The notes under the pieces were generated by a model. That model did no database searches and was not told the origin of the DNA. It was given only the letters and a program-made list of their open reading frames with translations. This document shows, piece after piece, positions 12,111 through 63,183 of a DNA stretch of 64,000 bases; position 1 is the stretch's first letter; each line of letters opens with the position of its first letter. Both the position numbers and the translations under genes were made by a program. Source of the DNA: a virus; the IMG/VR virus record IMGVR_UViG_3300032235_001069, positions 1 to 64,000 of that record. One strand, given 5' to 3'.

Positions 12111-12581
12111 ATGTCGGAATCTTTTATTAAAAAAATTATCTCTCCAGAAGAATTAGAGATAGTTGCAAAAGATATTTATTCGCTCCATGAGATAGATAAT
12201 GAAAAGTACGGCCATGCACTTGATTTAAAACATGATTATGAACTTATTTATAAATCTTTATCTCATGAATCATTATTGATTTGGAACATTCATGTTTGGG
12301 CACATTTCAATGGAGAAAAATACGATAGTATTTTCATTGGAATCATTAGAAAGTCGGAAAAATTTAATAAAAAAATAATGGATGAATATTTGTGGCTTGC
12401 TAAAAAATCAAACGTTGGAATGAAATTATATAAAATTGCACATGAATTTGCAAAAAGTCAAAAATGTGAATATATTTCAATGAATGTCACGGAAAGACAT
12501 CCCCTATCCAATAAAATAAAAAAAGTATATAAATTACTTGGATACGAAAAAGACTCCGAATCTTACATTAAAAAAATTTAG
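12111..12581 (+). CDS. GNAT-like acetyltransferase
   Basis: VGMKLYKIAHEFAK...C-x-x-I-x-M...VYKLLGY C-terminal GNAT pattern. Confidence 0.5.
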   Translation: MSESFIKKIISPEELEIVAKDIYSLHEIDNEKYGHALDLKHDYELIYKSLSHESLLIWNIHVWAHFNGEKYDSIFIGIIRKSEKFNKKIMDEYLWLAKKSNVGMKLYKIAHEFAKSQKCEYISMNVTERHPLSNKIKKVYKLLGYEKDSESYIKKI

Positions 12582-15500
12582 TATTCAAGAATCAAAATTG
12601 ATCTTGAAGCCATCGTAGAAATTCTATTTAAAAAATTATTATTGCCCTGCATTGATAAAACTCCATTGTATGTTTGCATGTCTTGAGTGGAAGAAGAAAT
12701 TGACACTTGATAAGTCCCAATTTCAAAATTTGCATTTTCTAAATCAAAATTAATTTCATATTCATTATTAATTTCGCTATAGTAATCAATTCCTATATTT
12801 GAAATTGTATGATTATTTGTTTGCTTTGATGGAGTTTGTATAAAAATTTGATAAACTAAATTAGTATTTGAATTAGTGGGCGTCCATTGAATATTTAAAT
12901 ATTTTTTATCATAATTATTATCTCTAATATATTTTAAAGATTTAAATATTGGAGCCTTTAATAAGGCGTCTTTTTCGGAAGAATTATTTTTCGAATTATA
13001 AGCCGAAATAAAATTAAAAGTACTATTTAAATCATCTATAGATGCATTTTCTTCTATCAACTTAAATTTGTCAGCATTGTATTCTGTTGCCAATAAATTA
13101 TATTCATTTATATAATTTTCAGTAATTGACATTATTTTAAAAATTGGCTGATTAATATTTTTAATTTTTAATGAAAATTGAGAACCTACAACTAAATTTT
13201 GAATTCCATTTTTTACGGATTCTTTAATTTTGTTAAAAGATCCACTTTCATAATCCCAGCCACTTTTTGAAATTTCTAATTCTGAATATCCAGAATCTGG
13301 ATAATTGTATCCAGTAATTATTTTAAAATTTTCAATTGATGGTCTATCATTCTCTATTATTTCAGAATAGCTGATTGATCCACTTGAATATCCCAAGGAG
13401 TCATTTACACAAATTTTAAAAGGTTCATCAGTATTTCCAGTAATTGAAAAACCAGAATAATCATAAAGAGGTTCATTTAGCAAATTTGTTCCAGTAAATT
13501 TCAAATATTTGCCGCTATCAAAAATTGAAAAGAAATATTGTTTTTTTTGATTTGTGTTTTTGCAAACTAAATCCGATACAGAATCAAATAAATATAAATC
13601 TTGCCCCATTTCATCTGGATTTCCTGTTATCAATTTCCAATGTCCATATTTTGCAGAATAATTATTATTTATATCATAATTTCTGACATATTTTAAAGAA
13701 CTTTGATAAGTGATTGTACTAGATAAAGGTTCGGAATAATCAAAGGAAATTAATCCAGTGTAATAGTAAGCTTGATTTATTAAATCTCTATCTTCTGTTT
13801 TTGTAAAAATAAATTCTTTATTTACGAATTTTTCATCAATTCTTTTTGTAATAATATTGTTTGTTGCTATTTTTATTTGATATGGATAAGATTCTGTTGA
13901 GGATGAAATATCTTCATATTTTGGCTTTGAAGTAGCGGTATATAGCGTTATTTCTGAAACGTCTAAAAATGTTTCGCAAATAGCGGGAGAAACTATAATT
14001 TTAAATTTATCATCATTTAAATTTTCTATTTTCTCTACTCTACCAAAATTTCTATATGAATTAAACAGTTCATCATTAATTCCTATTAAATCTCCAAGCT
14101 TGTAAAGCAATGCTTTCATGTCCGTAGTAAAAGAAACGTTCATATTTTCTTTTGACGTTTGAAATAGGAAATGCAAGCCTAATCTTCTCGCTTGTCCTTT
14201 TGACGTTACTCCAAAGGCATTTATTTGTTTTTTAAGAATACCTCTTTTTCTTATGCCATCTGAATCTTCTACATATTCAATTTTTGGTTTATAATTATCC
14301 TTTTCATCAATATATGCAACTTCAACCGCTGTATATTCATCATCTTTTTTATGATTTGTATAATTAAAAATACCATCCTTAACATCTGAATTATTAAATT
14401 CTCCAATAATTGGTTTAAGTCTGTCATCATCAAACGTAATCATTGAATTCATGTAATAAACATGACCCCTAAAAATTGAAGCAATTTGATTAATCATGTC
14501 AAAGACATTAAATTTTTCAGTTATAATACCATTAAATGCGTGTCTTGGCTCAGTACCACCATAACTATCTGGAACTCCGTAGTAATATCCATTATCATCA
14601 ACGCCATCACACCATCTAGCTATTTTATAAAGTTCCCATATGTCTATTTGGTCTGAAGATATATAGTTTCCTAATCCATATCTTTTATTTACAAGCATGT
14701 CCATCAAAATCCAAGCTGGATTATTTGTCCACATTAATTTAAATGTACCATCCCAATCTCCATCGTATATTTTATATTTACCAGTTCCGTCCATGTATCT
14801 GACATCTTCCCCATCTTCATCATTTGGAAAATAATTAGAAGGAACCAAAATCTTTTTAAGCTTGCAATCAAAAGTTCTAGTTGGTATTTGGGAAAATGCC
14901 CTAGAATCAATTTTCATTCCAACCATTGAAGAGAAGGGGTATGAAAATTTCTGAGGAATAATTTCAGTAATTTTAGCTAAAGCAACTCTTTTTGAAATCA
15001 ATGGAGATAGCGTTTCGTAAGAAAGTTTTGTAACTTTTACATATCTTCTGAATGGCGTACCATCTTCATAATATTTTGGAGCTGGAAGTTTAATTGCTAA
15101 TCCAGCATCATTTGCAAAAGTATTATTAGAATCACTATCTATATTTGAAAATGGAACATTTTCATAATATAAAAAAGTTACGTCTCCATTTGCGGCTTTA
15201 TAAGTTTTTTCATAAATTGAAGTCGCTATGTAATTTTTAATTTTTAAATCTCTTTTTATTATTCCACATGATGATAAAACGTATTCAAAACATCTCAAAA
15301 TTGTCTCTTGTTGAATAGAACTTGGTAAATCAAAAGTAATAATTCTATTATTATTTAGAAATCCATCTTGAAAAAATTCTACGTGATGGTAGGCTGTTGG
15401 TCGTAAATCTTTTAATTCTTTTAAAAATCCAACTGTCCCACCTTCGTTGCCAAAATACGAATATTGTATTTCATATCCTTTGCCAACGCTAGAAAATCTT

Positions 15501-18500
15501 CTACCACAAAAACGCTGAGTATAACTATCTTGAATAGCGTTACATAGTGTTATTTGTTTTGATCCTGCATAATTACCCCAAAAATAAAAATCTGCAAGCC
15601 CTAATAAATAGTTTATCTGTCTGCCATTATAAAGACTAGAACTACTTTTCCCAACTTGCACAGTGTAATCAAGAGGAATATTCGTACATGTACTAAAAGA
15701 ATTTGATCCATCTCTAGTACCATAAAGAACATTACTTTCATAAGAAGTAAAAGTAATATTACTTATATTGCAAATATAATTTGCGACATCAATTGAATTA
15801 GAAGTATTAAAATTAATTTTTCCATTAAAATTCTGATCAAAAATAAAAGAAATTTTATTTGAAGAATTATTTAAAATAACCCAAAAACTTCCATTAAAAA
15901 ACAAAGGATCAATTTTTTGTGGTAAACCAGCAGCTCTTTCTTGGAGATTTACAGATGGAACAGTAATTACTTCACTAGCAGTTATATGCTTGACTGCGCC
16001 TATACTTTGCGATTTAAAATTAGATGCATTAAGCACTTTTGAAAAAAGTTCATAAAACACATCTGATCTTTTATGTTCAAATACCCAATTTGTATTTTTA
16101 AAATAATTTTTAACATATTCAAAATTCAAAGAATCTATGATTGTTGTACCACTAGCGATTCTTGTTAAAAAATTTAAGTTATTAATTATTTTTGAATTAA
16201 TCTTATCCAAAATTAATTCTTCTTGTAAATAAGCGTTAATATGATTTGATAAATTAATTTTAAAACTAGAATCCAAGGTGGTTTTATAAGAATTAAAAAC
16301 TCTATCTTTTACGGAAAATTCATTTATATTTGCAATTGGATCAAAAAGCGCCTTACTTATTCTAATTATAAAATTTCCATTTTTCCAATTTGCATAAGTT
16401 TCAGGTAAAACTTCAGATCTTGATGGATTAGTTTCCAATGCTGGGAAATTAATAATCACATCATTGGGGAAATTTTTTTCTAAAGTTTTGTAAAGAGATT
16501 GATAATTGTCGCCTCTATAACCAACGAATTCTTCAAAATAAAAAGACATGTAATAATTAGATGCCGTGTAATTTCTAATTTGCTGATCAGTTGGGATATC
16601 CACAACTTGAAAAGCTGTATAGTTATAATTATATAATTCAATTTTAATGCACTTATTAATATTTGAGCAATCGTATATTGCAAAAGTATCAAAATTCTTT
16701 TCGCTAGAAGTAAATTCTGCATAGGAATTGGTATAATTTTCAACAGTTAAAATATTATTTGGTAGAATTTGTTTATTAATGCTATTTCTCTTTCTCAAAA
16801 GACTTTGGCTTTGTCCGAGATCTATTTCCTCATATGCATTATTAAAATAATTGCTTACAATTGGTCCTGAAGAAATGATAAATCGACCTGTCAAATCACC
16901 ACCAGCAATTAATTTATTTTGCGCAGTTGCAAGAATCGTGCAGACACTATTATTTGAAACCACTCCATACTGAGCTGCAAAATCAGAATCTTGTTTCCAA
17001 CAAAATGCATCAAGAGATTTTGCAAAAGTGCCAGAAATCCCACCAGCATAATAAACTCCATTATGATAAGATAATGTGCAAATTCCAGTAATTCCAAAGC
17101 TGCTATTGCGCTCCGTCCAAGTTTGAGCATTTGGAGATGTAGCTAACGTTCCACTTGCTCCAGCAGCCACAAATAGCGAATTGCCAAATATGACACAATT
17201 AATACCAGTAGTTCCGAAACTGCTGATTCTTTCAGTCCAAGTATTTCCATCGGTTGAAGTTGCAAGTTTCCCACTTTGACCAGCAATAACGTAGCAATTG
17301 TTTCCAAAAGCGACTGTGGAAATTCCAGTTGCACCCCAGTTTATATTTCTCGTGGTCCAATTACATGCATCTGCAGATGTTGCTAATTTACCGCTTGCTC
17401 CAACAATTACGTAACAACTATTACCATAAGTTAATCCAGAAATTCCAGTAGTTAAAAAACTACTTGTTCTTTGCGTCCAATCAATTGCATTTGGAGAAGT
17501 AGCAAGTTTACCAGAATTACCAGCGGCAACATATAAATTATTTCCATAAATTACTTTCTGTATTCCAGTACTTCCGAAACTACTTGTTCTTTGGGTCCAA
17601 CTTTCTCCATCGCTTGATGTCGCTAAAAATCCACCAGTACTAACTGCTATATAACATTGATTTCCACAAGTTAAACTTTTAATTCCAGTTTGATTAAAAT
17701 TATTTATTGAAACTTTATGAAATAAAGTTCCACCTTCGTCTAAATCTCCAATTCTGTAATCGTTTAAATCAGAATTAAAACCAAAAATTAAATCATCATA
17801 TTTTTGTATTGCCTCAGAACCGTAAATTGAATTTGAGATATTAATTTCTTGTTTTAAACCTATTACTTTATCATTTTGTATTATTTCGCAAATTCCTTTT
17901 TCTTCATCTTTTTGTCCAAATTTCAATCCTAAATCAACAAAATCAATTTCTTTATTATCAGTCAAAAAGAATCTTAATTTTTGATTAATTCCATCGACTG
18001 AAGACGTAACTTTTAAAAGGTATATTTTTTTATCTGGATAATAAAGATTTGTCGTTTTAACTAGATAACCACCAGAATCAAAACTTCCTTTTGTTCCATA
18101 AACAAAATCATAAGTTTTTCTACCCAAGTCTATATACGACTGCTGCGTAGAAACGCCAAATATTTCAAAAAAATATTTAAAATATTCATTTGGACCTATG
18201 CAAAAAACTCTCTGTTTGGATTCATACCCAGTTTCAACTTGCACTTTTACAACTGCTGGCAATCTTGTTCCTGCTGTTATGTTTTGTAATTTATCACCAA
18301 AGCCTGGATTTAGTTGAGTCGTAGTAGCAGAATTAGCAGTACCCTTATAATAACTTATTTTCTCTAAATCTGGATTATTTATTGATGTTGATACATTTGA
18401 ATATAATTGATAAAATATAATAACATCCGATCCTTGGTTAACTTTTGTATATGCGCCATCTATTATAAAAATATTTTTTGGGTCATAAAAATTGTAATTA

Positions 18501-21256
18501 AAAGTCTTGTTATCAGAATTAATTAAAAAAGTATGAATTCTATTATTTTTAACATTATTTAAATCTGCATTATCTAAATAAACTCTTATAGTATTAGCGT
18601 CAAAAACACTCACTTTTTCAAATAAATATACAGAAGAAAAACCAATTAATTTTCCACCCTCGAATTTTTTTAAACTTTCCTGCAATCCAGAAGTAAAAGA
18701 AACATCTGTAATTATAGATCCACCTTCAACTGATGCGGAATATGTTAGCCCAGAAGGAGATTTTAATAAATATTCTTCTAAAAGTTGATCTAAAACACTT
18801 AATTTTAATTTTCCAGCTGACTGAAAATATGAAAGCTGACTATCTAAATAATGTTTATTAAAACCAATTAGATATAAATTTTTAATGACATCTTTAGCCC
18901 CGTCTTTTATAGTATAAGTTAAATTACTTTTTGAACTCCAATATCTCAAAAATGGATCAACAATATATCTCTGGACATTTGGGTATAGAATATCTAAATT
19001 ATCAATTGTGTTTGGTGTATCTTTTGCAACCGAATTTGCAACAGAATCCCAATATTTAAAAATTAACTTGTAATCAATATAGTTATTTAATATCAAAGCT
19101 ACAGAAGCTCTTTTCTTAAGTTCACTTTCTGGCGCTGTATAATATTTGTATTCTGCTACTATTACGTTTTTTGGATTTGCTAGAGATGGTATATTAGTAG
19201 TAATTAAAGTTAAAAAAGAAGTTCCATTTATGCATAAAGTTTCTCTATCAGTTAAACCATATGAATATGCAATAGTTCCATCTATATTTCTTGATTTTAG
19301 TTTTGATTCAAACGCGCTTGGATTTCCGATATATCCATTTATGCATATCGATTCTTTTGTGTAGCAACTATTGTTCGGAACGGTCCAACACCTTAGTGGA
19401 CTGGCTGTAGATAAGTCGTATTTTGTATTTGATAAGCCGTCATCACTAGCGGTAATATAATTATCAATATTATTTATTTTAGTGCATAAACCTATTGAAC
19501 TTTTAATTGCTGAAAAATAATCGCAAGTTGTGGAAGTAATATTTTTTATATTACAAAATATGCAACTTAAACATTCATTTTCGTCAATTATGTATCCATC
19601 GCTGATTGAGGTTCCAGCAATTAAAAAGTATCCTGTTTTAATTGAATTGACTACATAATCTGTTTTTTGAATTTGTGCCCAAGTTTTTGTACCTGGAGGT
19701 ACTGGGAGCGTTTGATTAGCTTTATTTACATCAGTGCGAAATCCAGGCTGGACACAATCCACATGTGCCGTATCATATAGGGCATCTAATGACAATGTTA
19801 CATAAACTTCTTCTACGTTTTCATTTGCTATGTAATGAGTTATAGGTACTGCTTCTTGACAAATTCTAGATGCCGAAGTTTTATCATATAAAGAATAATT
19901 TGTGTAAAGATTGCATATTAAATATGGAGCACCATCATTTGCATATTCAACAGGCCAAGCTCTTACGTATCTAATATCATCAGAACTTTCTGGCACTGTT
20001 GAATATGTTGGCTTTGAATTAGCGTCCGCACAAAAAGACGCTAATCTGGTAACTCCCATATATGTTGCTGGGTCAGTTCCAGCTGCAGCCGTTTTTTTGC
20101 ACGCAACAAGTTTAAATGGCCCAATTAATTCTTTTCCAATATTATTTTCAATTTCAATTCTATTAAATGCTTTTAATGGGGTTTGGATTTCAGATCCATT
20201 TTTAAATTCCGCTTGAACTAAATTATAATTATATAATGAAACATCATTTTGATAAACGATTAAATTGTTAAAATATTTATCTAAAATATTATCAATATTT
20301 TTAATTCCATCAGTTTCGCTATAAATAGACCAAATAAATAATCTCAAATTAAAAACATCATATTGGTAATAATTACTTGAATCAATTAAAGTCTTCAAAA
20401 AGGTTTTTTGTCCAGCAGGCGTCAATGAGCCGTTTTCCGCATAAGACCTTGGCATTTCAAAATAATTGAAAGAATTCAAAGAATCAGATCCAATTGAAAA
20501 ATAAATATAATTTCCCAAATTTGGTATTGATATTTTTAATGGATATTTTCCATCAACACCGCCTTCGGTTGGATCGAACGTTTTATTTATAAAAATTTTA
20601 AATTTTGGAATTTCTATTGATGTGAGAAATATATTTTCATTTTCAATTGGGGATAAATTAAAAGTTTTATCCAATAAAGCCTGCACATCAAAAGATCCTC
20701 CCAATAATTTAATAAAATTATATGCAGAATTTTTAGGACTATATGAAGTTATTTTTATTCCAGAATCAAAATTTGCATTATCTATGTCAATAGAAGTAGA
20801 TCCAATTTTTAATATTCTGCTAAAAGAATCAACCGAACCATCTACATTTAATATCGAAGTATCGGGCAGATTCACAACGCCATCGCTAAAACAATTTTTA
20901 TTATCACTCCAAAAATCCTTTAACGCTCTTTTTAAAAAATCTATTGATATTTTTTGAGTTTTTATCGAAGATGTTTCCTTAATAGGTGCATCATTTAAAT
21001 ATATGCCCTCAAATATGTTTTCTTCATATACTTTTTTTCCGTTTTTATTAACTAGTCCTTCAATTGGACCATCTGAAATTAAATCTATTAATTCGGCATA
21101 AGAAAATGAAGATACTGTTGCAACTCCGCCCATCTGCGGCGGAGCTAAAACTGAAGGATATTGAGTGACGGTTGGTGGCGGCGAAGGTGGTGGGGATTTT
21201 GGACCACCACCAGCTCCCAAAATAGTAAATTTATTTTTTTTGATTAAATGCTTCAT
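12578..21256 (-). CDS. tail tip / host-specificity protein, lambda gpJ-like, with large insertions
   Basis: 2892 aa; IDLISDGPIEGLV, YPFSSMVGMKIDSRAF, YDGDWDGTFKLMWTNNPAWILMD, GVTSKGQARR. Confidence 0.9.
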   Translation of the reverse strand: MKHLIKKNKFTILGAGGGPKSPPPSPPPTVTQYPSVLAPPQMGGVATVSSFSYAELIDLISDGPIEGLVNKNGKKVYEENIFEGIYLNDAPIKETSSIKTQKISIDFLKRALKDFWSDNKNCFSDGVVNLPDTSILNVDGSVDSFSRILKIGSTSIDIDNANFDSGIKITSYSPKNSAYNFIKLLGGSFDVQALLDKTFNLSPIENENIFLTSIEIPKFKIFINKTFDPTEGGVDGKYPLKISIPNLGNYIYFSIGSDSLNSFNYFEMPRSYAENGSLTPAGQKTFLKTLIDSSNYYQYDVFNLRLFIWSIYSETDGIKNIDNILDKYFNNLIVYQNDVSLYNYNLVQAEFKNGSEIQTPLKAFNRIEIENNIGKELIGPFKLVACKKTAAAGTDPATYMGVTRLASFCADANSKPTYSTVPESSDDIRYVRAWPVEYANDGAPYLICNLYTNYSLYDKTSASRICQEAVPITHYIANENVEEVYVTLSLDALYDTAHVDCVQPGFRTDVNKANQTLPVPPGTKTWAQIQKTDYVVNSIKTGYFLIAGTSISDGYIIDENECLSCIFCNIKNITSTTCDYFSAIKSSIGLCTKINNIDNYITASDDGLSNTKYDLSTASPLRCWTVPNNSCYTKESICINGYIGNPSAFESKLKSRNIDGTIAYSYGLTDRETLCINGTSFLTLITTNIPSLANPKNVIVAEYKYYTAPESELKKRASVALILNNYIDYKLIFKYWDSVANSVAKDTPNTIDNLDILYPNVQRYIVDPFLRYWSSKSNLTYTIKDGAKDVIKNLYLIGFNKHYLDSQLSYFQSAGKLKLSVLDQLLEEYLLKSPSGLTYSASVEGGSIITDVSFTSGLQESLKKFEGGKLIGFSSVYLFEKVSVFDANTIRVYLDNADLNNVKNNRIHTFLINSDNKTFNYNFYDPKNIFIIDGAYTKVNQGSDVIIFYQLYSNVSTSINNPDLEKISYYKGTANSATTTQLNPGFGDKLQNITAGTRLPAVVKVQVETGYESKQRVFCIGPNEYFKYFFEIFGVSTQQSYIDLGRKTYDFVYGTKGSFDSGGYLVKTTNLYYPDKKIYLLKVTSSVDGINQKLRFFLTDNKEIDFVDLGLKFGQKDEEKGICEIIQNDKVIGLKQEINISNSIYGSEAIQKYDDLIFGFNSDLNDYRIGDLDEGGTLFHKVSINNFNQTGIKSLTCGNQCYIAVSTGGFLATSSDGESWTQRTSSFGSTGIQKVIYGNNLYVAAGNSGKLATSPNAIDWTQRTSSFLTTGISGLTYGNSCYVIVGASGKLATSADACNWTTRNINWGATGISTVAFGNNCYVIAGQSGKLATSTDGNTWTERISSFGTTGINCVIFGNSLFVAAGASGTLATSPNAQTWTERNSSFGITGICTLSYHNGVYYAGGISGTFAKSLDAFCWKQDSDFAAQYGVVSNNSVCTILATAQNKLIAGGDLTGRFIISSGPIVSNYFNNAYEEIDLGQSQSLLRKRNSINKQILPNNILTVENYTNSYAEFTSSEKNFDTFAIYDCSNINKCIKIELYNYNYTAFQVVDIPTDQQIRNYTASNYYMSFYFEEFVGYRGDNYQSLYKTLEKNFPNDVIINFPALETNPSRSEVLPETYANWKNGNFIIRISKALFDPIANINEFSVKDRVFNSYKTTLDSSFKINLSNHINAYLQEELILDKINSKIINNLNFLTRIASGTTIIDSLNFEYVKNYFKNTNWVFEHKRSDVFYELFSKVLNASNFKSQSIGAVKHITASEVITVPSVNLQERAAGLPQKIDPLFFNGSFWVILNNSSNKISFIFDQNFNGKINFNTSNSIDVANYICNISNITFTSYESNVLYGTRDGSNSFSTCTNIPLDYTVQVGKSSSSLYNGRQINYLLGLADFYFWGNYAGSKQITLCNAIQDSYTQRFCGRRFSSVGKGYEIQYSYFGNEGGTVGFLKELKDLRPTAYHHVEFFQDGFLNNNRIITFDLPSSIQQETILRCFEYVLSSCGIIKRDLKIKNYIATSIYEKTYKAANGDVTFLYYENVPFSNIDSDSNNTFANDAGLAIKLPAPKYYEDGTPFRRYVKVTKLSYETLSPLISKRVALAKITEIIPQKFSYPFSSMVGMKIDSRAFSQIPTRTFDCKLKKILVPSNYFPNDEDGEDVRYMDGTGKYKIYDGDWDGTFKLMWTNNPAWILMDMLVNKRYGLGNYISSDQIDIWELYKIARWCDGVDDNGYYYGVPDSYGGTEPRHAFNGIITEKFNVFDMINQIASIFRGHVYYMNSMITFDDDRLKPIIGEFNNSDVKDGIFNYTNHKKDDEYTAVEVAYIDEKDNYKPKIEYVEDSDGIRKRGILKKQINAFGVTSKGQARRLGLHFLFQTSKENMNVSFTTDMKALLYKLGDLIGINDELFNSYRNFGRVEKIENLNDDKFKIIVSPAICETFLDVSEITLYTATSKPKYEDISSSTESYPYQIKIATNNIITKRIDEKFVNKEFIFTKTEDRDLINQAYYYTGLISFDYSEPLSSTITYQSSLKYVRNYDINNNYSAKYGHWKLITGNPDEMGQDLYLFDSVSDLVCKNTNQKKQYFFSIFDSGKYLKFTGTNLLNEPLYDYSGFSITGNTDEPFKICVNDSLGYSSGSISYSEIIENDRPSIENFKIITGYNYPDSGYSELEISKSGWDYESGSFNKIKESVKNGIQNLVVGSQFSLKIKNINQPIFKIMSITENYINEYNLLATEYNADKFKLIEENASIDDLNSTFNFISAYNSKNNSSEKDALLKAPIFKSLKYIRDNNYDKKYLNIQWTPTNSNTNLVYQIFIQTPSKQTNNHTISNIGIDYYSEINNEYEINFDLENANFEIGTYQVSISSSTQDMQTYNGVLSMQGNNNFLNRISTMASRSILILEY
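16960..17690 (-). repeat. six 120-nt (40-aa) beta-propeller-type repeats inside J
   Basis: Trp codons spaced exactly 120 nt; unit WTQRTSSFGxTGIxxxxYGNxxYVxxGxSGKLATSxD. Confidence 0.85.
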
Positions 21257-26721: not shown

Positions 26722-26946
26722 ATGGAAGAAAAGTCAGTTCCTCAATTTGATGAGTTGGTTTCTGTAGTAAGTTACGAGATCCTTGATGGCAAGGACGAAT
26801 ATGTAACTTCGTACAGTGCCGATCTTAAAAAAAATACGAATGGTCGTCTTGATGGTCTAAAAATGGCTAAAGATACTCTGAGGTATCGTCCAGATTATAG
26901 ACTTTATGAGGTCTATTCTAATGGGTATAGGAAACTGATTGATTAA
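26722..26946 (+). CDS. hypothetical protein
   Basis: ORF between 26717 and the tRNA cluster. Confidence 0.5.
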   Translation: MEEKSVPQFDELVSVVSYEILDGKDEYVTSYSADLKKNTNGRLDGLKMAKDTLRYRPDYRLYEVYSNGYRKLID

Positions 26947-26952
26947 TTTAAT

Positions 26953-27028
26953 CGCAGGTTGGACAAGAGGTCAAGTCGTTTGGCTCATAACCAAAAGATC
27001 GGGGGTTCAAATCCCTCACCTGCAACCA
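26953..27028 (+). tRNA. tRNA-Met(CAT), initiator-like
   Basis: C1:A72 mismatch, TTTGG-CTCATAA-CCAAA anticodon arm, GGTTCAAATCC T arm, encoded CCA. Confidence 0.9.
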
Positions 27029-27030
27029 AT

Positions 27031-27191
27031 TTCGAGTAACCACAACCCCACTGGTAGTAGGGTGGGATGTAATTGGAATGTAGCATCCTGTAACTCCTGC
27101 TCGAAAGCGACACCTGCCTCTCTGCGAATGTGGAGTGCATGGATCGGGAATACTCGGTCGAAGAGTGGTGCGACTAATCGGAGAGACGATT
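27031..27191 (+). ncRNA. unidentified structured RNA, copy 1
   Basis: TTCGAGTA/TGCTCGAA stem; GCGACACCTGC; two hairpins; GTGGTGCGAC; AATCG-GAGAGA-CGATT. Confidence 0.7.
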
Positions 27192-27198
27192 TTTAATT

Positions 27199-27346
27199 AG
27201 CTCGTCCACCATGTGTGGAAGGAGCAACGAGGTCACTATGTGACTTCAGCCTTGCGACACCTGCTAGTGGCTCCATGCCGCTAGGTTGAGTCTGCGCTTG
27301 TTAGTTGCGTGGACTAAATCAGTGGTGTGACACTGGGAGAGACTAG
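27199..27346 (+). ncRNA. unidentified structured RNA, copy 2
   Basis: two 5' hairpins; GCGACACCTGC; two hairpins; GTGGTGTGAC; CTGG-GAGAGA-CTAG. Confidence 0.7.
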
Positions 27347-27357
27347 ACAATTTTAAT

Positions 27358-27442
27358 GGGTAGTTCGCATAGCGGCTATTGCAGGAGACTGTAAATTTCC
27401 CGACTTCGGTCATCGATGGTTCGAGTCCATCACTACCCACCA
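27358..27442 (+). tRNA. tRNA-Tyr(GTA)
   Basis: GGGTAGT/ACTACCC acceptor, CTGTAAA loop, long variable arm, CCA. Confidence 0.92.
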
Positions 27443-27481
27443 TTTTAGAAAAAATATAGTAATTATTTACTATATATTAAT

Positions 27482-27556
27482 TCCTCTCTACCATAACGGA
27501 AATGGAACGTCCTGTTAAGACGTAATATCTTGGTTCAAATCCAAGGGGAGGAGCCA
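27482..27556 (+). tRNA. tRNA-Asn(GTT)
   Basis: ACGTC-CTGTTAA-GACGT, G73, CCA. Confidence 0.9.
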
Positions 27557-27621
27557 TCTTTTTAAGATTAATGGTAGAGCAAAAATGTCTCTACCATTTA
27601 AATTGAGTGTATTCTGCAATA

Positions 27622-27966
27622 ATGAAAGAAAAACTTATTATTAAAAAATGCCCTCATCATGGCGATTCCGACTTTGTTTTAGAAAATAGAAATGCATATA
27701 GATGCAAAAAATGTAGATCAGAATCAATAGCAAAAAAAAGAAAAATTATTAAACAAAAACTAATTAATATTTTTGGCGGCAAATGTACAATTTGCAATTA
27801 TAATAAATGCGATTCAGCCTTAGAATTTCATCATCTAGATAGAAAAACAAAATCTTTTGAATTGAGTCAGCGAAATTACTATAGATCATTTGAAAGAATT
27901 TTAGAAGAAGCTAAAAAATGCATATTAGTTTGCGCAAATTGCCACAGAGAAATTGAAAATTTATAA
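27622..27966 (+). CDS. HNH homing endonuclease
   Basis: GGKCTICNY...ALEFHH...CILVCANCHRE; inserted between tRNAs. Confidence 0.85.
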   Translation: MKEKLIIKKCPHHGDSDFVLENRNAYRCKKCRSESIAKKRKIIKQKLINIFGGKCTICNYNKCDSALEFHHLDRKTKSFELSQRNYYRSFERILEEAKKCILVCANCHREIENL

Positions 27967-57650: not shown

Positions 57651-57725
57651 TGGCGATTCTAGCTGGATTCGAACCAGCAATAATTCTTTAGAAGAGAACT
57701 GTGATGTCCATTTCACTATAGAATC
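57651..57725 (-). tRNA. tRNA-Arg(TCT)
   Basis: GATTCTA/TAGAATC, GTTCT-CTTCTAA-AGAAT, CCA. Confidence 0.9.
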
Positions 57726-57766
57726 TTTGTTCACTGGGATAAATTCAAAGTGTAAACACTTGAACT

Positions 57767-58252
57767 ATGGACAAGAGTATTTTAGCAGAGATGATAAGTC
57801 AAGGATTTTCCACCAGAGAAATTTCGAAAAAAATGAATTGCGGCCAAACAAATGTTATGTATTGGATGCGAAAACATAATTTAAATATTTTAACTAAAGT
57901 GAAGAGCGAAAAAACTTGTCCAAAATGCAAGCAAATTTTAGATCTTTCTTTTTTTTACCAAAGGAGAGGAAAAATTGGAGGATCAGTTTATTGCAAAGGC
58001 TGCACTAACTCACAAGCAATGGAGAGGCAGAAAAAATTAAAAATACAATGCGTTGAATACAAGGGTGGCTGTTGTCAAGTTTGTAATTATTCTAAATCTT
58101 TATCCGCTTTGGAATTTCATCACTTGAATCCAAGCGAAAAGGAATTTAGTTTATCTAGCAAAAAATCGTTTTCTTTCAACGAGCTGATAAAAAAGGAACT
58201 GGATAAATGCATTTTGCTTTGCGCAAATTGCCATAGGGAACAACATGACTAG
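57767..58252 (+). CDS. HNH homing endonuclease with N-terminal HTH
   Basis: KGGCCQVCNY...ALEFHH...CILLCANCHRE; paralog of 27622..27966. Confidence 0.85.
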   Translation: MDKSILAEMISQGFSTREISKKMNCGQTNVMYWMRKHNLNILTKVKSEKTCPKCKQILDLSFFYQRRGKIGGSVYCKGCTNSQAMERQKKLKIQCVEYKGGCCQVCNYSKSLSALEFHHLNPSEKEFSLSSKKSFSFNELIKKELDKCILLCANCHREQHD

Positions 58253-58584
58253 ACTGAGCTATGGGTACTGGAAAGATCAATGCTCTTGCGGTGATATTCT
58301 TCACCATAAACTCTTTCTGTCAAGACAATTTCGACTTTGCCTGACGGATAAACATACACCTCACCATAAGTGCCAAGAAAATAATCGAACTTTGGATAAT
58401 GTTCTCTTAGAAAATCAGCAACTGCATCTCCGTAGTCGTCGCCCATCTTGACGCACGCGCCTTCCATATATGCTGCCGCATCAAACCATTCGAAGATACG
58501 GTCTTGAGCAGACCAGTTAAAGATGGCATAGTCTAGCTTACCACTCTTCAGAAACTCAACAAGATCAAGCAATGTCTTTTCCAT
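58249..58584 (-). CDS. hypothetical protein
   Basis: 111 aa directly below promoter module A. Confidence 0.65.
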   Translation of the reverse strand: MEKTLLDLVEFLKSGKLDYAIFNWSAQDRIFEWFDAAAYMEGACVKMGDDYGDAVADFLREHYPKFDYFLGTYGEVYVYPSGKVEIVLTERVYGEEYHRKSIDLSSTHSSV

Positions 58585-58593
58585 ATGCGATAC

Positions 58594-58691
58594 ATGATAG
58601 CCAGTGTTAGGGAGAATGCAACACTTATTTCAAAAAATATTTACGCACTTGTGCGTAATAACACTTGACAGGGAGCCAGGGCTATCCCTGG
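58594..58691 (-). promoter_or_regulatory. hairpin-promoter module A
   Basis: TTGCAT-16-TATCAT on -; TTACGCACTTGTGCGTAA; TTGACA; CCAGGGCTATCCCTGG. Confidence 0.8.
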
Positions 58692-58714
58692 AACGTAACC
58701 ACCTCATTCTGAGG

Positions 58715-58800
58715 TGGTACGGGGAGTGGGACTCGAACCCACACGCTCTAACGAGCATCAAATTTTAAGTCTGATGTGGCTGCCATTACACCATCCCCGC
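58715..58800 (-). tRNA. tRNA-Leu(TAA)
   Basis: TCAGA-CTTAAAA-TTTGA, long variable arm, CCA. Confidence 0.92.
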
Positions 58801-59226
58801 TTTTCTTTTCTTGTTTCTCCAGTTGTCTGTCAAAGCATGACAGTTGCAACATAAGAGTTGAAGATTTTCAAAATTGTTATTGGTTCTATTTCCATCTACA
58901 TGGTGAAGCTCCAAAGGGATACTATCACTCAACCATTCACTTTGCAAGCATTTTTCGCATTTGTGGCCTTTTTCATTTATTAAATGAGAACGAAGATTCT
59001 TTGTTCTTTTGTAGGAAGACCAATCTTTAATCCTTTGATCTTTGCTCCAAAGTTGACCAGTGAAATGCGACGTTTCTAAATTTAGTTTAGCAATCTTTGT
59101 CTTGACTGTATCAAAGTTTCCACCAGCTTCCTTTAGATCCAAAAATCTAAGGACTTCAGAAATGGATTTGCTTTTCTTAACCGCATTAATCAAATCCTCT
59201 TCTGTGTATCGTCTATACTTTCTCAT
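58786..59226 (-). CDS. HNH homing endonuclease
   Basis: CEKC...LELHHVDGNRTNN..ENLQLLCCNCH. Confidence 0.88.
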   Translation of the reverse strand: MRKYRRYTEEDLINAVKKSKSISEVLRFLDLKEAGGNFDTVKTKIAKLNLETSHFTGQLWSKDQRIKDWSSYKRTKNLRSHLINEKGHKCEKCLQSEWLSDSIPLELHHVDGNRTNNNFENLQLLCCNCHALTDNWRNKKRKAGMV

Positions 59227-59289
59227 GCTTTATTTTACACTAAAAAGGTAGACGAAGAATCAATTTGATTGCGAGACTGCCGAAGAAAG

Positions 59290-59562
59290 TGGGGGAGGTG
59301 GGAATTGAACCCACGACCAAGCGATTATGCTTACTACTATAACTTTCGTTACCAGAATTTCTGTTTGTAGTCTGGACTATGCCTTTACCGTGGTATTTCT
59401 ACTTTAGGTAGGTGATTATAGTCTCTACACGTTCCTCTTTCGAGGCTTCGCTCGACGTTGGGATTTTAAACCGTTCATCGAATTTACACCTTACTAATTA
59501 TTCGTTTCCGAATAATCGACCCATTATTAAGTCGCCTGCTCTTACCTCTGAGCTACTCCCCC
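59290..59562 (-). tRNA. intron-containing tRNA(CAT), probably Ile2; exons 59530-59562 and 59290-59329
   Basis: spliced form GGGGGAG...GGCGA-CT^CAT-AA-TCGCT...CTCCCCCA, 73 nt; arm matches E. coli ileX as recalled. Confidence 0.88.
59330..59529 (-). mobile_element. group I intron, 200 nt, no ORF
   Basis: P1 CGACU/GGUCG with U.G at the splice site, GAGACTA/TAGTCC P7, GAAA tetraloops, terminal G. Confidence 0.88.
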
Positions 59563-59569
59563 TAAAAAC

Positions 59570-59890
59570 TTACAATTCAAAAGCGAGAATGTTATCTGCT
59601 GGAAGAAAGTTCAACTCTGCCTCACCTTCATATAAGGAATATCCTAGCACAGTCAAAGCGAAGACGCAAGCATTATCGTAAGAAAAATCTCGAAAGGAAT
59701 GAATCTCTACACCATCATCTTTGTCCACGATGTAATAGTCTTTAATCTCATCAGACAAAGATTTAGGTTCTACACGAAAGCCCAAATGTGTAAGGGCTTG
59801 TTCTTCAGCGGTTTCCGCTGAATCTTTGTCAATCATTACTTGTTCCTGAAAGGAAGTATCATCTTCGATTAGTGTGTATGGTTCGTGCAT
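59570..59890 (-). CDS. hypothetical acidic protein
   Basis: internal duplication A..ALT.LG(F/Y); start uncertain. Confidence 0.6.
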   Translation of the reverse strand: MHEPYTLIEDDTSFQEQVMIDKDSAETAEEQALTHLGFRVEPKSLSDEIKDYYIVDKDDGVEIHSFRDFSYDNACVFALTVLGYSLYEGEAELNFLPADNILAFEL

Positions 59891-59948
59891 ATTTATTTCT
59901 TTAATGTTAAGCATATTACTACAAGGGTTACGATTAGAGCATCCATAA

Positions 59949-60644
59949 TTAGACATGAATTACAAAGCCCGAATTATCTTTTTTTGCTGGTCCCTTGGCA
60001 CGCAGTCCCACGATTGCGTTCTTTGGATCAAGGAAGCGGAGATCGTTTTCATCTCCGTCAATGACTTTGAAACCTTCGTGTTCTGTTGGCAAGGGTTGAT
60101 CTTTTTTAGTGGAGAAAACAAAAGCTGAATTGTTTCCTTTTGCTAAAGCTGCGAACGATTTAACTTGAGACACTTTAGTCTCTGCGCGTGAAAAAGTCAA
60201 GTGGTAATTTGAAATTGTCAAGTCCAAACGATCAAACAATTTTATGTAATCATAGAACTGCACACCAGAAAAATGCTGGAAAATGTTTTTTCCCTTGTGG
60301 ATAATGTCTTCCCATCTGATATCAGAAGTCAAGTTGAGACGAAACACAGCTTGCAAGCTTTTCTTTGCGGCTGATTTGATTCCTGTCTCAATTTCTTTGA
60401 TTAAATTATCCATGAACAAAGCCTGCTCTTCAAAGAAGCTTTTTGTTTTTTCGATTCGCTGTGGCTGAACCATGACACCCATGCCTGCCAAGTTAAGGCA
60501 AGAATCTGTGCAACCTTTTGATCTGCCTTGACAAACTTCATACCCGCTAATGTTAGCGGGTGCAAAGTGAATGCCAAAGGTTTCGTATCCGAAGGATCTG
60601 CCCTTCAGTGTTTTGTAATTAGCAACGGTGAGTATTTTTTGCAT
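59949..60644 (-). CDS. GP88-like phage protein
   Basis: C-x6-C-x3-CL, RLNLTSDI.W, QFYDY.K, NYHLTFS, DGDENDLRFLD, GLRAKG. Confidence 0.75.
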   Translation of the reverse strand: MQKILTVANYKTLKGRSFGYETFGIHFAPANISGYEVCQGRSKGCTDSCLNLAGMGVMVQPQRIEKTKSFFEEQALFMDNLIKEIETGIKSAAKKSLQAVFRLNLTSDIRWEDIIHKGKNIFQHFSGVQFYDYIKLFDRLDLTISNYHLTFSRAETKVSQVKSFAALAKGNNSAFVFSTKKDQPLPTEHEGFKVIDGDENDLRFLDPKNAIVGLRAKGPAKKDNSGFVIHV

Positions 60645-60649
60645 GACGT

Positions 60650-60770
60650 AAGAATATCACTAGCAAGGGTTCGTGCAACAATTATTTCGCAAAATATTTA
60701 CGCCTTTAGGCGTAATAGTTCTTGACATCCCAGCCAGGGCTACCCCTGGCCCCCACCCGATGGGTGGGGG
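60650..60770 (-). promoter_or_regulatory. hairpin-promoter module B plus GC-rich hairpin
   Basis: TTGCAC...TATTCT on -; TTACGCCTTTAGGCGTAA; TTGACA; CCAGGGCTACCCCTGG. Confidence 0.8.
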
Positions 60771-60823
60771 TCAGCTTCCCGATAGTGTTGGTAGTCAGTT
60801 AAACAAACCAAAAAACAAACCAA

Positions 60824-61078
60824 CTATCTATTTGGAAGAATGGAATTGTCCAAGATTCTGTCAAGGTAGAACATTCCGAAGTGTGGTTGCTCCACCTTAC
60901 CGTTCTTTGCTACTATGTAGAGAGTGACAGCTTCAGGTGGGCAATGGTTAGTTCCACCTTTTGATCCTTTCTTTACGCCAGTACGAACGGTGTAGGTGTT
61001 TGTTTCACCTTTCTTGTTGTGATACTTAATCGAAAAGAACTTTCCGTTTGTTGTTGCGATAATGCGTTTGCCAATCAT
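60824..61078 (-). CDS. small phage protein
   Basis: GKFFSI...KKGE...RTGVKK. Confidence 0.65.
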   Translation of the reverse strand: MIGKRIIATTNGKFFSIKYHNKKGETNTYTVRTGVKKGSKGGTNHCPPEAVTLYIVAKNGKVEQPHFGMFYLDRILDNSILPNR

Positions 61079-61082
61079 AATG

Positions 61083-61334
61083 TTATTCCTCGTCTTCGTC
61101 GTCAAAATCTTCGTCCTCGTCGTCCCAATCATCTGGTTCTGTGGTGTTCATCGCAATGGTGGCGAGCAGATGATCGTAGTCTCCGCTTTGCGCTTCTTCT
61201 AGAACCGCACGAACTTCTTCTTGTGACCAGCCTTGGCGAAGCGCATTGCTTCTCCATGTTCCCATGATCACGAATGCATTGCCATCGAGGCCGACCAACT
61301 GCATCTTAACTTTCTTGGTTTTTGTGTTTTGCAT
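61083..61334 (-). CDS. small phage protein
   Basis: LVGLDGNAF.IMG...SGDYDHLL. Confidence 0.7.
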   Translation of the reverse strand: MQNTKTKKVKMQLVGLDGNAFVIMGTWRSNALRQGWSQEEVRAVLEEAQSGDYDHLLATIAMNTTEPDDWDDEDEDFDDEDEE

Positions 61335-61424
61335 GTCGCTTGTATTGTTTTTTGCTTGGTTGTACGACTCGCAACATTCTGTTGCCCCATCGTAAAGTTT
61401 TTTGATAGGTTACTCCATCAACTT

Positions 61425-61667
61425 TTAGTTGTTTCTTTTTGGAGTCCATACTTTGAGCATAGCCTCATCCTTCATAATGTCAATACCGAATCCTAAAGTC
61501 TGGAAAGTATTTCTGAGAGTGTAGGCTTGGAGTTCAAGAATCTTTTTCATTTCGCTAGTTGACATTGCATCGCCAACAGCTTCCTGCGTAGCCCTGTGGA
61601 ATGCGTAAAGCATTTCACAGAACTGGTTTACCAACGGGGTCAACTCTTCAATAGTGCTTTTGTTCAT
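61425..61667 (-). CDS. hypothetical protein
   Basis: directly below module C. Confidence 0.6.
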   Translation of the reverse strand: MNKSTIEELTPLVNQFCEMLYAFHRATQEAVGDAMSTSEMKKILELQAYTLRNTFQTLGFGIDIMKDEAMLKVWTPKRNN

Positions 61668-61673
61668 GTGAGA

Positions 61674-61790
61674 AGCATATACAGAGCAAACGAATGCGCA
61701 ACATTTATTTCAAAAATATTTACGTCCTTGGACGTAATAGTTGTTGACAGTCCAGCCAGGGGTAGCCCTGGACCCCCGCCTTTCGGCGGG
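61674..61790 (-). promoter_or_regulatory. hairpin-promoter module C
   Basis: TTGCGC...TATGCT on -; TTACGTCCTTGGACGTAA; TTGACA; CCAGGGGTAGCCCTGG. Confidence 0.8.
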
Positions 61791-61808
61791 AGCCCATTCG
61801 TATGGAAA

Positions 61809-62114
61809 TTAATGTGCGACTACTTCTGCTTCGTCGATTTCTATAGAGAAGTCTCCACCACCAAAGGAGAATTCAAGCTCATTACCCGTAAGGGAAACTT
61901 CTTGAGGAAGCCTGCGATCTGTTTTATGGTTAAGTAGAACGCTGTGATCCATCCCATCTTTCCACCTTTCGAGGTGAACATTAGTGGGAACGAAGTGGGA
62001 GACATGATTCCAGAGAATCAATCTTTCTCCCTTTTTGATTGCTCTCTTGACTCTCTCAACGTGAGCGTGTTTGACTTTGATTGTGATGTTGGTGTTTCCA
62101 ATGTTTGTTTGCAT
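61809..62114 (-). CDS. hypothetical protein
   Basis: directly below module D. Confidence 0.6.
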   Translation of the reverse strand: MQTNIGNTNITIKVKHAHVERVKRAIKKGERLILWNHVSHFVPTNVHLERWKDGMDHSVLLNHKTDRRLPQEVSLTGNELEFSFGGGDFSIEIDEAEVVAH

Positions 62115-62120
62115 GTGAGA

Positions 62121-62236
62121 AGCATAGCAAAAGCTCTCATGCGTGCAACAATTTTAATTAAAAAAAATTACGCACCTGTGCGTAATAGTTGTTGACAGGA
62201 AAGCCAGGGCCCTGGACCCCGCCTTGCGGTGGGGTC
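62121..62236 (-). promoter_or_regulatory. hairpin-promoter module D
   Basis: TTGCAC-16-TATGCT on -; TTACGCACCTGTGCGTAA; TTGACA; CCAGGGCCCTGG. Confidence 0.8.
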
Positions 62237-62244
62237 TGGTTCTT

Positions 62245-62454
62245 TTACGCTTGTTTGATTCTCGCCTCTACGAGCATCTCATTGAACTGGTCAAGCACTT
62301 TCTGCTTGTTGCCTCTCAAACCAAACTCCTTTTTGATTTGAGCATATGCGGAACATCCTTTGATCGGATAGATTCCTTTTGTTTCGAGTTTCAGGGCGCT
62401 TGCCAGCATCAGGAGGCGATAAGCGGAGATTTGTTGTGGTGTGTCTAGTGTCAT
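62245..62454 (-). CDS. small phage protein
   Basis: ALKLE.KG...SAYA.IKKEFGLRGNK.KVL. Confidence 0.65.
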   Translation of the reverse strand: MTLDTPQQISAYRLLMLASALKLETKGIYPIKGCSAYAQIKKEFGLRGNKQKVLDQFNEMLVEARIKQA

Positions 62455-62455
62455 A

Positions 62456-62659
62456 TTAGGTGTAGCATACTGGGTGGATGTCATTCCTGCAACCATTATA
62501 TTTTCTGTTCATCATAATGGAATGGGTGTGCATGACTCTTTTGAGCCTCTGCTTGGATTCTGTCTTGACCTTCTTCAACTTGGAAAGCTCCATCTGCAGA
62601 TAGGTAATCTCATCAATGCTGAGACTTTTTGCGGCTTCAATGATTTGTTTTTTATTCAT
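62456..62659 (-). CDS. hypothetical protein
   Basis: 67 aa in the cassette. Confidence 0.5.
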   Translation of the reverse strand: MNKKQIIEAAKSLSIDEITYLQMELSKLKKVKTESKQRLKRVMHTHSIMMNRKYNGCRNDIHPVCYT

Positions 62660-62664
62660 AAGAA

Positions 62665-63000
62665 TTAGCGAAAGACTCTTGTCAAGTGATTATTGACACC
62701 GTTCTTGAAAAGCTCATAGTCAACGCAGTCAACCGCATCCAACTTGTACCCACCGATATTCCATTCAAACAAAACGTCTGGGCTGGATGGTACACGCTTC
62801 CATGCGTAGATGGTGGCGACTGTATCATTGGGGAACTTTAAGCGCCATTCGATGTTAACTTTTTCGCTTTCATCGATTGGATTATTATGCTTGTCAGGCG
62901 CACCGAATACAGCAACCAATTGGTCGTATGTGCATGAGATGTAACCTTTGAGCGAGGTTCCGTTGATGAGTGGCGTTCTTCTAACTGTTGTAGTTGTCAT
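62665..63000 (-). CDS. conserved small phage protein
   Basis: GTSLKG...YDQLVAVFG.P...KV..EW...ATIY.WK...WNIGG. Confidence 0.7.
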   Translation of the reverse strand: MTTTTVRRTPLINGTSLKGYISCTYDQLVAVFGAPDKHNNPIDESEKVNIEWRLKFPNDTVATIYAWKRVPSSPDVLFEWNIGGYKLDAVDCVDYELFKNGVNNHLTRVFR

Positions 63001-63007
63001 GGATAGA

Positions 63008-63104
63008 AAGATAGCACAGGAAAGAGTGCGTGCAACTTATTTTTCAAAAATAATTACGCCCTTGGGCGTAATAGTGCTTGACAGATCCCCAGGGCTACCC
63101 CTGG
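63008..63104 (-). promoter_or_regulatory. hairpin-promoter module E
   Basis: TTGCAC...TATCTT on -; TTACGCCCTTGGGCGTAA; TTGACA; CCAGGGCTACCCCTGG. Confidence 0.8.
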
Positions 63105-63108
63105 GCGT

Positions 63109-63183
63109 TGGTGGACAGGATGAGACTCGAACTCATAACCAACGCCTTAAAAGGGCGCTGCTCTACCATTGAGCTACCTGTCC
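63109..63183 (-). tRNA. tRNA-Lys(TTT)
   Basis: GGACAGG/CCTGTCC, GCGCC-CTTTTAA-GGCGT, CCA. Confidence 0.92.

Follow-up and report, generated by a model that had tools for sequence, protein, structure and literature searches.

Two copies of a single structured RNA module, a predicted pseudoknot followed by a capped hairpin, lie between tRNA-Met and tRNA-Tyr in the tRNA cluster of an uncultured phage. Their kinship is far beyond chance, because the covariance model R1 scores the copy left out of its seed at 54.2 bits and because the exact pattern GCGACACCTGC-N40-70-AGTGGTGYGAC is found in at least 119 IMG/VR contigs. Comparison of the members indicates that this pseudoknot-hairpin family is a real and strongly selected RNA. 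The catalogues do not contain this sequence family, although it ranks with the commoner small structured RNAs of uncultured phages and recurs in hundreds of them with hardly a letter changed.

The Locus and Its Two Units

The window, that is, the whole stretch of 64,000 nt that was analysed, comes from an 85.7-kb IMG/VR virus record with a completeness estimate of about 59%. A cluster of five tRNAs on the + strand (ARAGORN) holds the structured-RNA spacer, and tail, dCMP deaminase, and HNH genes are found nearby. The spacer measures 329 nt and is bounded by tRNA-Met (CAT; 26953-27028, + strand; ARAGORN, Rfam tRNA 62 bits) and tRNA-Tyr (GTA; 27358-27442, + strand; ARAGORN). Its G+C content is about 50% versus about 35% around it, in keeping with the GC enrichment described in the original prediction. 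The encoded CCA of tRNA-Met stops 1 nt short of an accessory module, called module A, and the P4 hairpin of unit 2 is separated from the start of tRNA-Tyr by 11 nt. The units share the orientation of the tRNAs and are packed tightly between them.

R1 was seeded with 46 copies, namely, copies from other phages and copy 1 of the window; copy 2 was left out. Over the 64 kb window, the model gives exactly two matches, 27101-27196 and 27248-27352. The first corresponds to unit 1 (27107-27191, + strand), which scores 84.1 bits as a member of the seed. Its helix S1 consists of 27107-27109 paired with 27115-27117 (3 bp), A27110 forms the loop L1, and helix S2 joins 27111-27114 to 27167-27170. Two insert hairpins follow (CTCTGC/GTGGAG, 27120-27135; GATCGGG/CTCGGTC, 27142-27159), then the conserved AGU (27164-27166), the CGAC linker (27171-27174), and the hairpin P4, in which 27176-27180 pairs with 27187-27191 around the GAGAGA loop at 27181-27186.

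Unit 2 (27254-27349, + strand; E 1e-11) is the unseeded copy and has a fold z-score of -4.3. S1 is formed by 27254-27256 with 27262-27264, L1 is A27257, and S2 is formed by 27258-27261 with 27324-27327. The insert hairpins are TAGTGGC/GCCGCTA (27265-27283) and AGTCTGCGC/GCGTGGACT (27289-27315). AGU lies at 27321-27323 and UGAC at 27328-27331; P4 pairs 27333-27336 with 27343-27346 around the GAGAGA loop at 27337-27342 and is followed by an ACA tail (27347-27349). All these elements are on the + strand.

The conserved strings are where they had been placed (GCGACACCTGC at 27107 and 27254, AGTGGTGCGAC at 27164, AGTGGTGTGAC at 27321), and the insert hairpins named with them are present, as are the 3′ hairpins with the GAGAGA loop (27176-27191 and 27333-27346). 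The description of two 150-160 nt units of one layout has to be revised, as homology is limited to about 85-95 nt of each copy. What had been taken for two 5′ hairpins common to both copies belongs to unrelated modules (27030-27106 and about 27197-27253), each of which recurs elsewhere in other combinations.

Fold and Covariation

The core of the unit is ordered GCG-A-CACC-UGC ... AGU-GGUG; a YGAC linker and the hairpin with the GAGAGA loop come after it. In the canonical core, S1 arises from the pairing of GCG with the UGC immediately 3′ of CACC, and the whole is best described, from the pattern of substitutions, as a putative H-type pseudoknot of two interleaved helices, each with compensatory changes. 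Its parts are S1 (3 bp), L1 (one A), S2 (4 bp), and an S1 hairpin loop of 5 nt. The third loop, L3, ranges from 5 nt to about 70 nt with hairpins, and AGU always stands at its end. P4, a 5-bp hairpin with the GAGAGA loop, lies 3′ of the pseudoknot and YGAC.

In 134 distinct sequences, pairing is preserved in 96.8% of the cells, versus 30-46% when the partners are slid by 1-3 columns. Double changes occur at 14 of the 19 pairs in the same set, including all P3 and P4 pairs, and the GAGAGA loop is closed almost invariably by G-C (128 of 134). Since G-U pairs are abundant, the folding strand is the + strand. Across 96 distinct copies, the stems between and 3′ of the conserved blocks vary freely while their pairing is kept. 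These counts agree with the original prediction of a folded RNA with conserved junctions and freely varying stems.

The CACC/GGUG helix S2, a pairing that had been suggested from the two copies, is proven by CACA/UGUG in ten sequences together with the ACGCC/GGCGU variants. Pair 14-73 is C-G in 124 sequences and A-U in 10, and pair 12-75 is A-U or G-C. For S1, more than 120 copies have C-G at pair 8-16, 7 distinct sequences on two backgrounds have U-A, and 4 have U.G. C.A is seen in two cases only, both of them without the 3′ hairpin, and these look like chance matches in coding DNA. Compensatory changes give the S1 helix modest support, and C8-G78 with G9-Y77 may be an alternative pairing to it.

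Two other interpretations of the same segments were rejected. A three-way junction, in which UGC would pair with GCA after hairpin 1, applies to one subclass only; U8-A16 variants break it, and S1 survives them. A T7/SP6-type promoter was considered for its resemblance to GGTGTGACACTGGGAGAGA. Covariation links the stretch between GAC and GGAGAG to the stretch that follows, and the promoter-like GGTGTGACACTGGGAGAGA is therefore an RNA stem.

Units of 45-60 nt exist among the R1 matches, and the inserts are dispensable, given minimal units of 45-52 nt. By contrast with the freely varying stems, about 17 unpaired nucleotides (A10, AGU, YGAC, GAGAGA) are near-invariant across phages differing widely in G+C and host. 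A core so nearly invariant implies that the RNA is catalytic or that it has a partner present in every bacterium, and either answer would add to what is understood of phage RNA processing and stabilisation or of host manipulation. A ligand-binding aptamer, riboswitch-like or acting as a small-molecule sponge, is very improbable. The small pseudoknot with its invariant core is of the type of the preQ1, SAM-II, or fluoride aptamers, but it comes with no expression platform and no metabolic gene association, and identical cores precede tRNAs, where there is no translation to regulate.

Catalogue Status and Distribution

The original prediction could not assign the RNA to a known class, and it is indeed absent from Rfam. 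At the gathering thresholds of Rfam 15, tRNAs alone pass in the window; at E≤10 with permissive filters, the interval 26900-27500 gives noise only, with nothing credible for either unit. TRNAs are also the only families to pass in 12 related loci, where no known ribozyme is found. A text search of about 8.4 million papers with the conserved strings, to which the supplements of the IMG/VR structured-RNA catalogue (PMC10690425) were external, returned no relevant paper.

Homologs with covariation, whose existence the original prediction had made a point of checking, were recovered across IMG/VR phage contigs by R1 and by the pattern search. On 100 related loci, R1 gives 176 matches at E≤0.1, typically in arrays of 2-6 units. 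The canonical pattern occurs in 13 of 185,579 species genomes, mostly on phage-like MAG contigs. These 13 genomes belong to Acidobacteriota, Verrucomicrobiota, Bdellovibrionota, Cyanobacteriota, Armatimonadota, Actinomycetota, Planctomycetota, and Bacteroidota, and the host range comprises at least nine phyla. Because the pattern is present in just these 13 species genomes, the unit is not a mimic of a host RNA or of a bacterial antitoxin array. A blastn search of the whole spacer against 50,697 cultured phage records gave matches confined to the tRNAs, and a single-unit query gave a few matches of 23-42 nt.

Two array systems known for tandem RNA units were compared with the family and rejected. 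Type III toxin-antitoxin RNAs (ToxI) are short direct repeats, almost identical to one another, beside a toxin of the ToxN/AbiQ type, and a phage pseudo-ToxI would imitate an array of this sort from bacteria; the likeness breaks down in that the array units of the present family differ in insert and stems, neighbour clustering gives no conserved neighbour, and the pattern is near-absent in bacteria. The UG27 RT arrays of phages are variable tandem arrays of pseudoknotted ncRNA units, single units being gained or lost (bioRxiv 10.64898/2026.09.22.753630). The units there measure about 135-167 nt and have the motifs AUCN7UANAG and UUYA; the RT and two accessory genes are their neighbours (bioRxiv 10.64898/2026.09.22.753630). 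The motifs of the present family are different, and clustering of its neighbours yields the scaffold, the major head protein, tRNAs, or unrelated singletons.

Genomic Context

tRNAs are present in 27 of the 119 listed loci, and in 26 of these 27 a tRNA on the same strand is found no more than 500 nt from a unit. The end of P4 falls 3-12 nt before the mature tRNA 5′ end at 26 non-redundant junctions, which involve 12 tRNA identities. Another 53-60 of the listed loci are without tRNAs, and there the array fills the interval immediately downstream of the major head protein gene (phrog_1328). In this capsid type, a single strand carries scaffold, major head protein, array, and two conserved ORFs in that order. 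The setting in a tRNA cluster is thus correct for the window, and it fails as a family trait, about half of the listed loci being located behind the major capsid gene.

Canonical arrays always have the orientation of the neighbouring genes and fill whole intergenic gaps. Any function has to be reconciled with a placement that is strictly cis, co-oriented, and seated in the gaps of heavily transcribed operons. The compactness of phage genomes may by itself explain the tight spacing to neighbours.

The tRNA junctions bear on the idea that the unit is a substrate mimic of RNase P, which is unlikely. In the supposed geometry, S1 and S2 (7 bp) on P4 (5 bp, 6-7-nt loop) would imitate an acceptor/T-arm, and host RNase P would cut between U(-1) and G(+1) before the unit. 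The helix lengths of 3+4 and 5 bp would suit such a substrate, the first-position G is invariant, the 5′ flank is U-rich and G-poor, and RNase P, besides matching the tRNA-cluster setting, is the one processing enzyme common to all host phyla. Conversely, the 3′ side has nothing like CCA, the loop has the sequence GAGAGA and is not a T-loop, the strand connectivity is permuted with respect to tRNA, and the members of the general class are mostly without S1.

Accessory Modules and Array Grammar

Module A (27030-27106, + strand) has 16 distinct relatives elsewhere. It is a three-way junction with a 7-bp closing stem, UUUCGAG/CUCGAAA, around two hairpins, and its conserved strings are GUAACCAC, UGGUA, UAAUUGGAAUGUAGC, and AAUCCUGC. 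The closing stem covaries (UCGAG/CUCGA, CUCAG/CUGAG, UUGGG/CCCAA, UCUUAG/CUAAGA), and ACCA and UGGU of the module could form a further pseudoknot. A pseudoknot unit is found within a few nt 3′ of the module in 16 of 16 distinct copies, in a collection for which the search itself demanded a downstream pseudoknot unit. Module A is itself a strongly conserved structured RNA outside the catalogues.

Module B (about 27197-27253, + strand) is known in 8 distinct copies with covarying stems. It consists of two hairpins with conserved CCAUGUGNNGAAGGAG and CUUCAG, and it is not homologous to module A. In related phages, a short palindromic CCCCCAAUUGGGG hairpin replaces module B and stands 1-2 nt before the next unit (loci L006, L009, L021, L038, and others); the replacement is seen in genomic loci and in RNA contigs.

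The order of the modules is shuffled across loci. The window has A, pseudoknot unit, B, pseudoknot unit; elsewhere module A, a pseudoknot unit, the hairpin, and a second pseudoknot unit occur in succession, or two pseudoknot units alone, or one pseudoknot unit, a module C, and two further pseudoknot units, and other arrangements are also present. In the capsid-linked arrays, at least three further recurrent structured modules are observed (L037, L092, L103, and others; L016, L035, L117). They are recognised by the strings GCCCGCCAAGGCUAGUGCGCAAGCAUCCUCAAACCGGCGGGC, GUGCAAGCGNAGRG...GGGCACAA, and GGGACGCCGAAACAGGAACGCC..., and none of these modules of the capsid loci is in Rfam.

The Wider Family and Cultured Phages

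A wider retrieval was based on the 3′ half alone, namely, GTGAC, P4 with GGAGAGAC, and ACA, and it returned mostly new contigs. Among the at least 114 unique matches listed, a valid P4 stem is present in 67, and 16 of these 67 lie inside ORFs of the same strand; some of the 3′-half matches are chance matches in coding DNA. The helix preceding GAC takes the forms ACGCC, ACGUC, GCACC, AUGCC, and others. GA is usually found 5′ of this helix, where it could join the first two nucleotides of GAC in tandem G.A pairs.

The wider family keeps the helix, GAC, and the GAGAGA hairpin, and S1 is mostly undetectable in it. By a simple search, S1 is found in 17 of the 114 sequences versus 6 expected, and the pseudoknot is therefore a trait of the canonical subfamily. 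No conserved protein neighbour was found in the 3′-half sample, in which nearly all neighbours are singletons and are mostly co-oriented. Given that no protein is linked to the units and that their hosts span at least nine phyla, the partner is universal machinery, or there is none. A tRNA starts within 40 nt downstream of 11 of the 51 intergenic wider-family units.

Divergent members in cultured phages were found by blastn and R1, every score being weak. In the lambdoid Morganella phage IME1369_02, the holin gene follows 48 nt after a match of 20.1 bits (locus L261, 1471-1530). A match of 15.9 bits in Pseudomonas phage Itty13 (L262, 1459-1529) precedes the terminase small-subunit gene and occupies a gap that carries no annotation; about 800 nt 3′ of this unit are without an annotated gene. 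In phage P1 (NC_005856), a match of 11.7 bits (L145, 1501-1544) falls in the 286-nt gap between trnI and ban (71009-71294), for which RNA features are absent from the annotation. The P1 unit reads GGAU-U-CACC-AUCC ... GGUG-UGAC-AGCCGG-GAAGAGU-CCGGC, and its S1 would be GGAU/AUCC, with GAAGAGU as the loop of the hairpin. Despite their weak scores, copies in cultured phages would make the family open to experiment.

The positions of these copies at the starts of operons (Morganella phage holin, Itty13 terminase small-subunit, P1 ban) recall put-like processive antitermination, by which a cis RNA would modify RNA polymerase so that long untranslated or late operons are read through. RNA polymerase would be a universal partner, and the units are co-oriented with their neighbours. 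This explanation is nonetheless quite unlikely: arrays of up to six units in mid-operon, after the capsid stop codon, are not expected from it, neither sequence nor structure resembles the put RNAs, and no terminators were found downstream in the window.

Comparison with Known Phage and Cellular RNAs

The locus resembles that of rnaC and rnaD of phage T4 in that two adjacent small structured non-tRNA RNAs are co-directional in a tRNA operon with a homing-endonuclease gene nearby. To our knowledge, no function has been established for these T4 species 1 and 2 RNAs. Homology was rejected, as R1 with filters off gives at best 6.3 bits over the T4 cluster and no match that overlaps the rnaC or rnaD genes on their strand. 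T4 rnaC ends in the T-arm-like GGUUCGAAUCC, whereas the window units have the GAGAGA loop and the pseudoknot; unlike rnaC and rnaD, the present family also occurs far from tRNAs. By this comparison, the T4 RNAs are positional analogues only.

A double T-loop has the signature UGNNA ... AGNNA, with six invariant core residues, and is found in T-box stem I, RNase P, and the L1 stalk (PMC3664808, PMC11404447). By letters, GG-UGYGA-C and G-AGAGA-C of the present unit match UGNNA/AGNNA and the T-box GGUGNRA/AGVGA boxes, with the order reversed, and both the present family and the T-box modules are associated with tRNA. Covariation led to the rejection of an interdigitated double T-loop: within UGYGA, U75 forms a Watson-Crick pair with A12 and G76 one with C11, and the pairs next to them covary as well. 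Since U75 and G76 are paired in the helix, the block cannot form the U1.A5 reverse-Hoogsteen pair of a T-loop.

Theta ribozymes are small and pseudoknotted, are almost confined to Caudoviricetes, and often lie beside phage tRNAs in sense orientation (PMC10879173). It has been proposed that they stand in for host enzymes in the maturation of tRNA ends, and their cleavage site is within 1 nt of the tRNA 3′ end in 77% of the tRNA-associated copies (PMC10879173). Unlike theta, the present unit has its 3′ hairpin 3-12 nt ahead of the 5′ end of a tRNA, and other sequence usually separates its 5′ border from the tRNA that precedes it. The HDV-like/theta fold is a nested double pseudoknot of P1, P1.1, P2, P3, and P4 with a catalytic C in J4/2 (PMC10879173). 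Membership in this class was rejected: the unit has no such nested fold, there is no Rfam HDV-family match, there is no P3/L3 between S2 and S1, and the border is not at the tRNA 3′ end.

A new class of small self-cleaving ribozyme, which would cut polycistronic phage RNA at the unit borders independently of host RNases, is unlikely. It would fit a compact pseudoknot core in which many unpaired nucleotides are invariant and the peripheral stems can be dispensed with, and it would fit the tandem arrays, the restriction to phages, and the association with tRNAs; the phage-tRNA-maturing ribozymes offer a precedent (PMC10879173). Cleavage would also remove a structured trailer from the upstream tRNA; yet module A separates the unit border from the tRNA 3′ end. 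Further points against it are the topology, which is unlike that of HDV-like ribozymes (S1 of 3 bp, no P3/L3, no position for the J4/2 cytosine), the lack of any Rfam ribozyme match at E≤10 or of known ribozymes in the 12 related loci, and the wider family, which retains only the helix, GAC, and the GAGAGA hairpin, with S1 mostly undetectable. If such a ribozyme existed, phages of many phyla would cut their transcripts beside tRNAs and behind the capsid gene.

Presence in RNA Libraries

Part of the stretch is present in twelve RNA-library runs. Metatranscriptome contigs from four studies cover about 27040-27258/71, and the coding flanks are mostly uncovered. One RNA contig is 100% identical, and the others are relatives with the CCCCCAAUUGGGG hairpin in place of module B. 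The evidence consists of assembled contigs, which record presence in the libraries and neither RNA ends nor strand. Three RNA contigs begin at 27040/41 and three finish at 27256-58; these shared borders most likely arose in assembly, at points where the sequences of co-occurring strains branch apart.

The coverage of the region with its flanks mostly missing would suit a stable RNA acting in trans as a decoy or sponge, whose invariant loops would bind and titrate either some universal host factor or a nuclease of host defence, such as one directed at tRNAs or ribosomes. Multi-copy arrays in tRNA operons and downstream of the capsid gene, where transcription would be heaviest and the RNA would accumulate, the invariant unpaired nucleotides, and the combination of a broad host range with no linked phage protein all point in this direction. 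The decoy is doubtful all the same, as stand-alone copies with their own promoter and terminator are not seen and no complementary or mimicked bacterial sequence was found.

A Tentative Role as a Cis-Acting Spacer

The units may, on a tentative view, act in cis as nuclease-resistant spacers or insulators that define and protect RNA ends in polycistronic phage transcripts. The grounds for this are the covarying fold, the gap-filling co-oriented arrays, the tRNA junctions, the dispensable inserts, the coverage by RNA contigs, and the lack of an internal terminator, no terminator-like sites having been found inside the tRNA/RNA cluster of the window. We infer from them co-transcription, release, nuclease resistance, and a benefit to neighbours. 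The modules would be transcribed inside long same-strand transcripts, either tRNA operons or the capsid-to-tail late operon. Release would be effected by RNase P at the next tRNA, 3-12 nt downstream, together with an endonuclease acting in the A/U-rich linkers (ACA-AUUUU consensus). The knot and the capped hairpin would then halt exonucleases at defined ends, the module would keep the tRNA, the capsid mRNA, and the next cistron from mutual misfolding, and it would itself persist as a stable by-product.

The xrRNAs of flaviviruses and plant viruses are compact and are often arranged in tandem in untranslated regions. They are described as pseudoknot folds that block nucleases mechanically, define RNA ends, and leave stable products (PMC13556198). 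The present units show no sequence likeness to them, and the bacterial nucleases differ (RNase J, R, PNPase). An xrRNA stops a processive exoribonuclease by a ring-like fold around the 5′ end; in the present units, such a ring and such resistance would be conjectural.

Besides the compactness of phage genomes, two considerations weigh against the spacer. The near-invariant unpaired nucleotides exceed the need of a passive roadblock and point to a specific partner or to catalysis, and a structured 3′ trailer would hinder the maturation of the upstream tRNA unless it were cut 5′ of the trailer. A purely passive role is hard to square with the invariant loops, and for this reason no model is held at high confidence. 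The roles suggested in the original prediction (ribozyme, protein decoy, anti-defence RNA, and release during tRNA processing) stay candidates beside the spacer. The compact, modular, and insert-tolerant fold could serve as an insulator part in RNA engineering.

Other Features of the Window

tRNA-Arg-TCT, Leu-TAA, and Lys-TTT are encoded on the minus strand at 57651-63183, distant from the main cluster, and R1 detects no unit near these three genes. A free-standing HNH homing-endonuclease ORF of 119 aa (27607-27966, + strand; phrog_2255, E 8e-25) lies between tRNA-Asn and tRNA-Thr; its presence in the tRNA cluster recalls segB in the tRNA cluster of T4. An ORF of 2892 aa (12578-21256, minus strand) adjoins minor-tail-protein genes and presumably encodes a tail or tape-measure-like protein.
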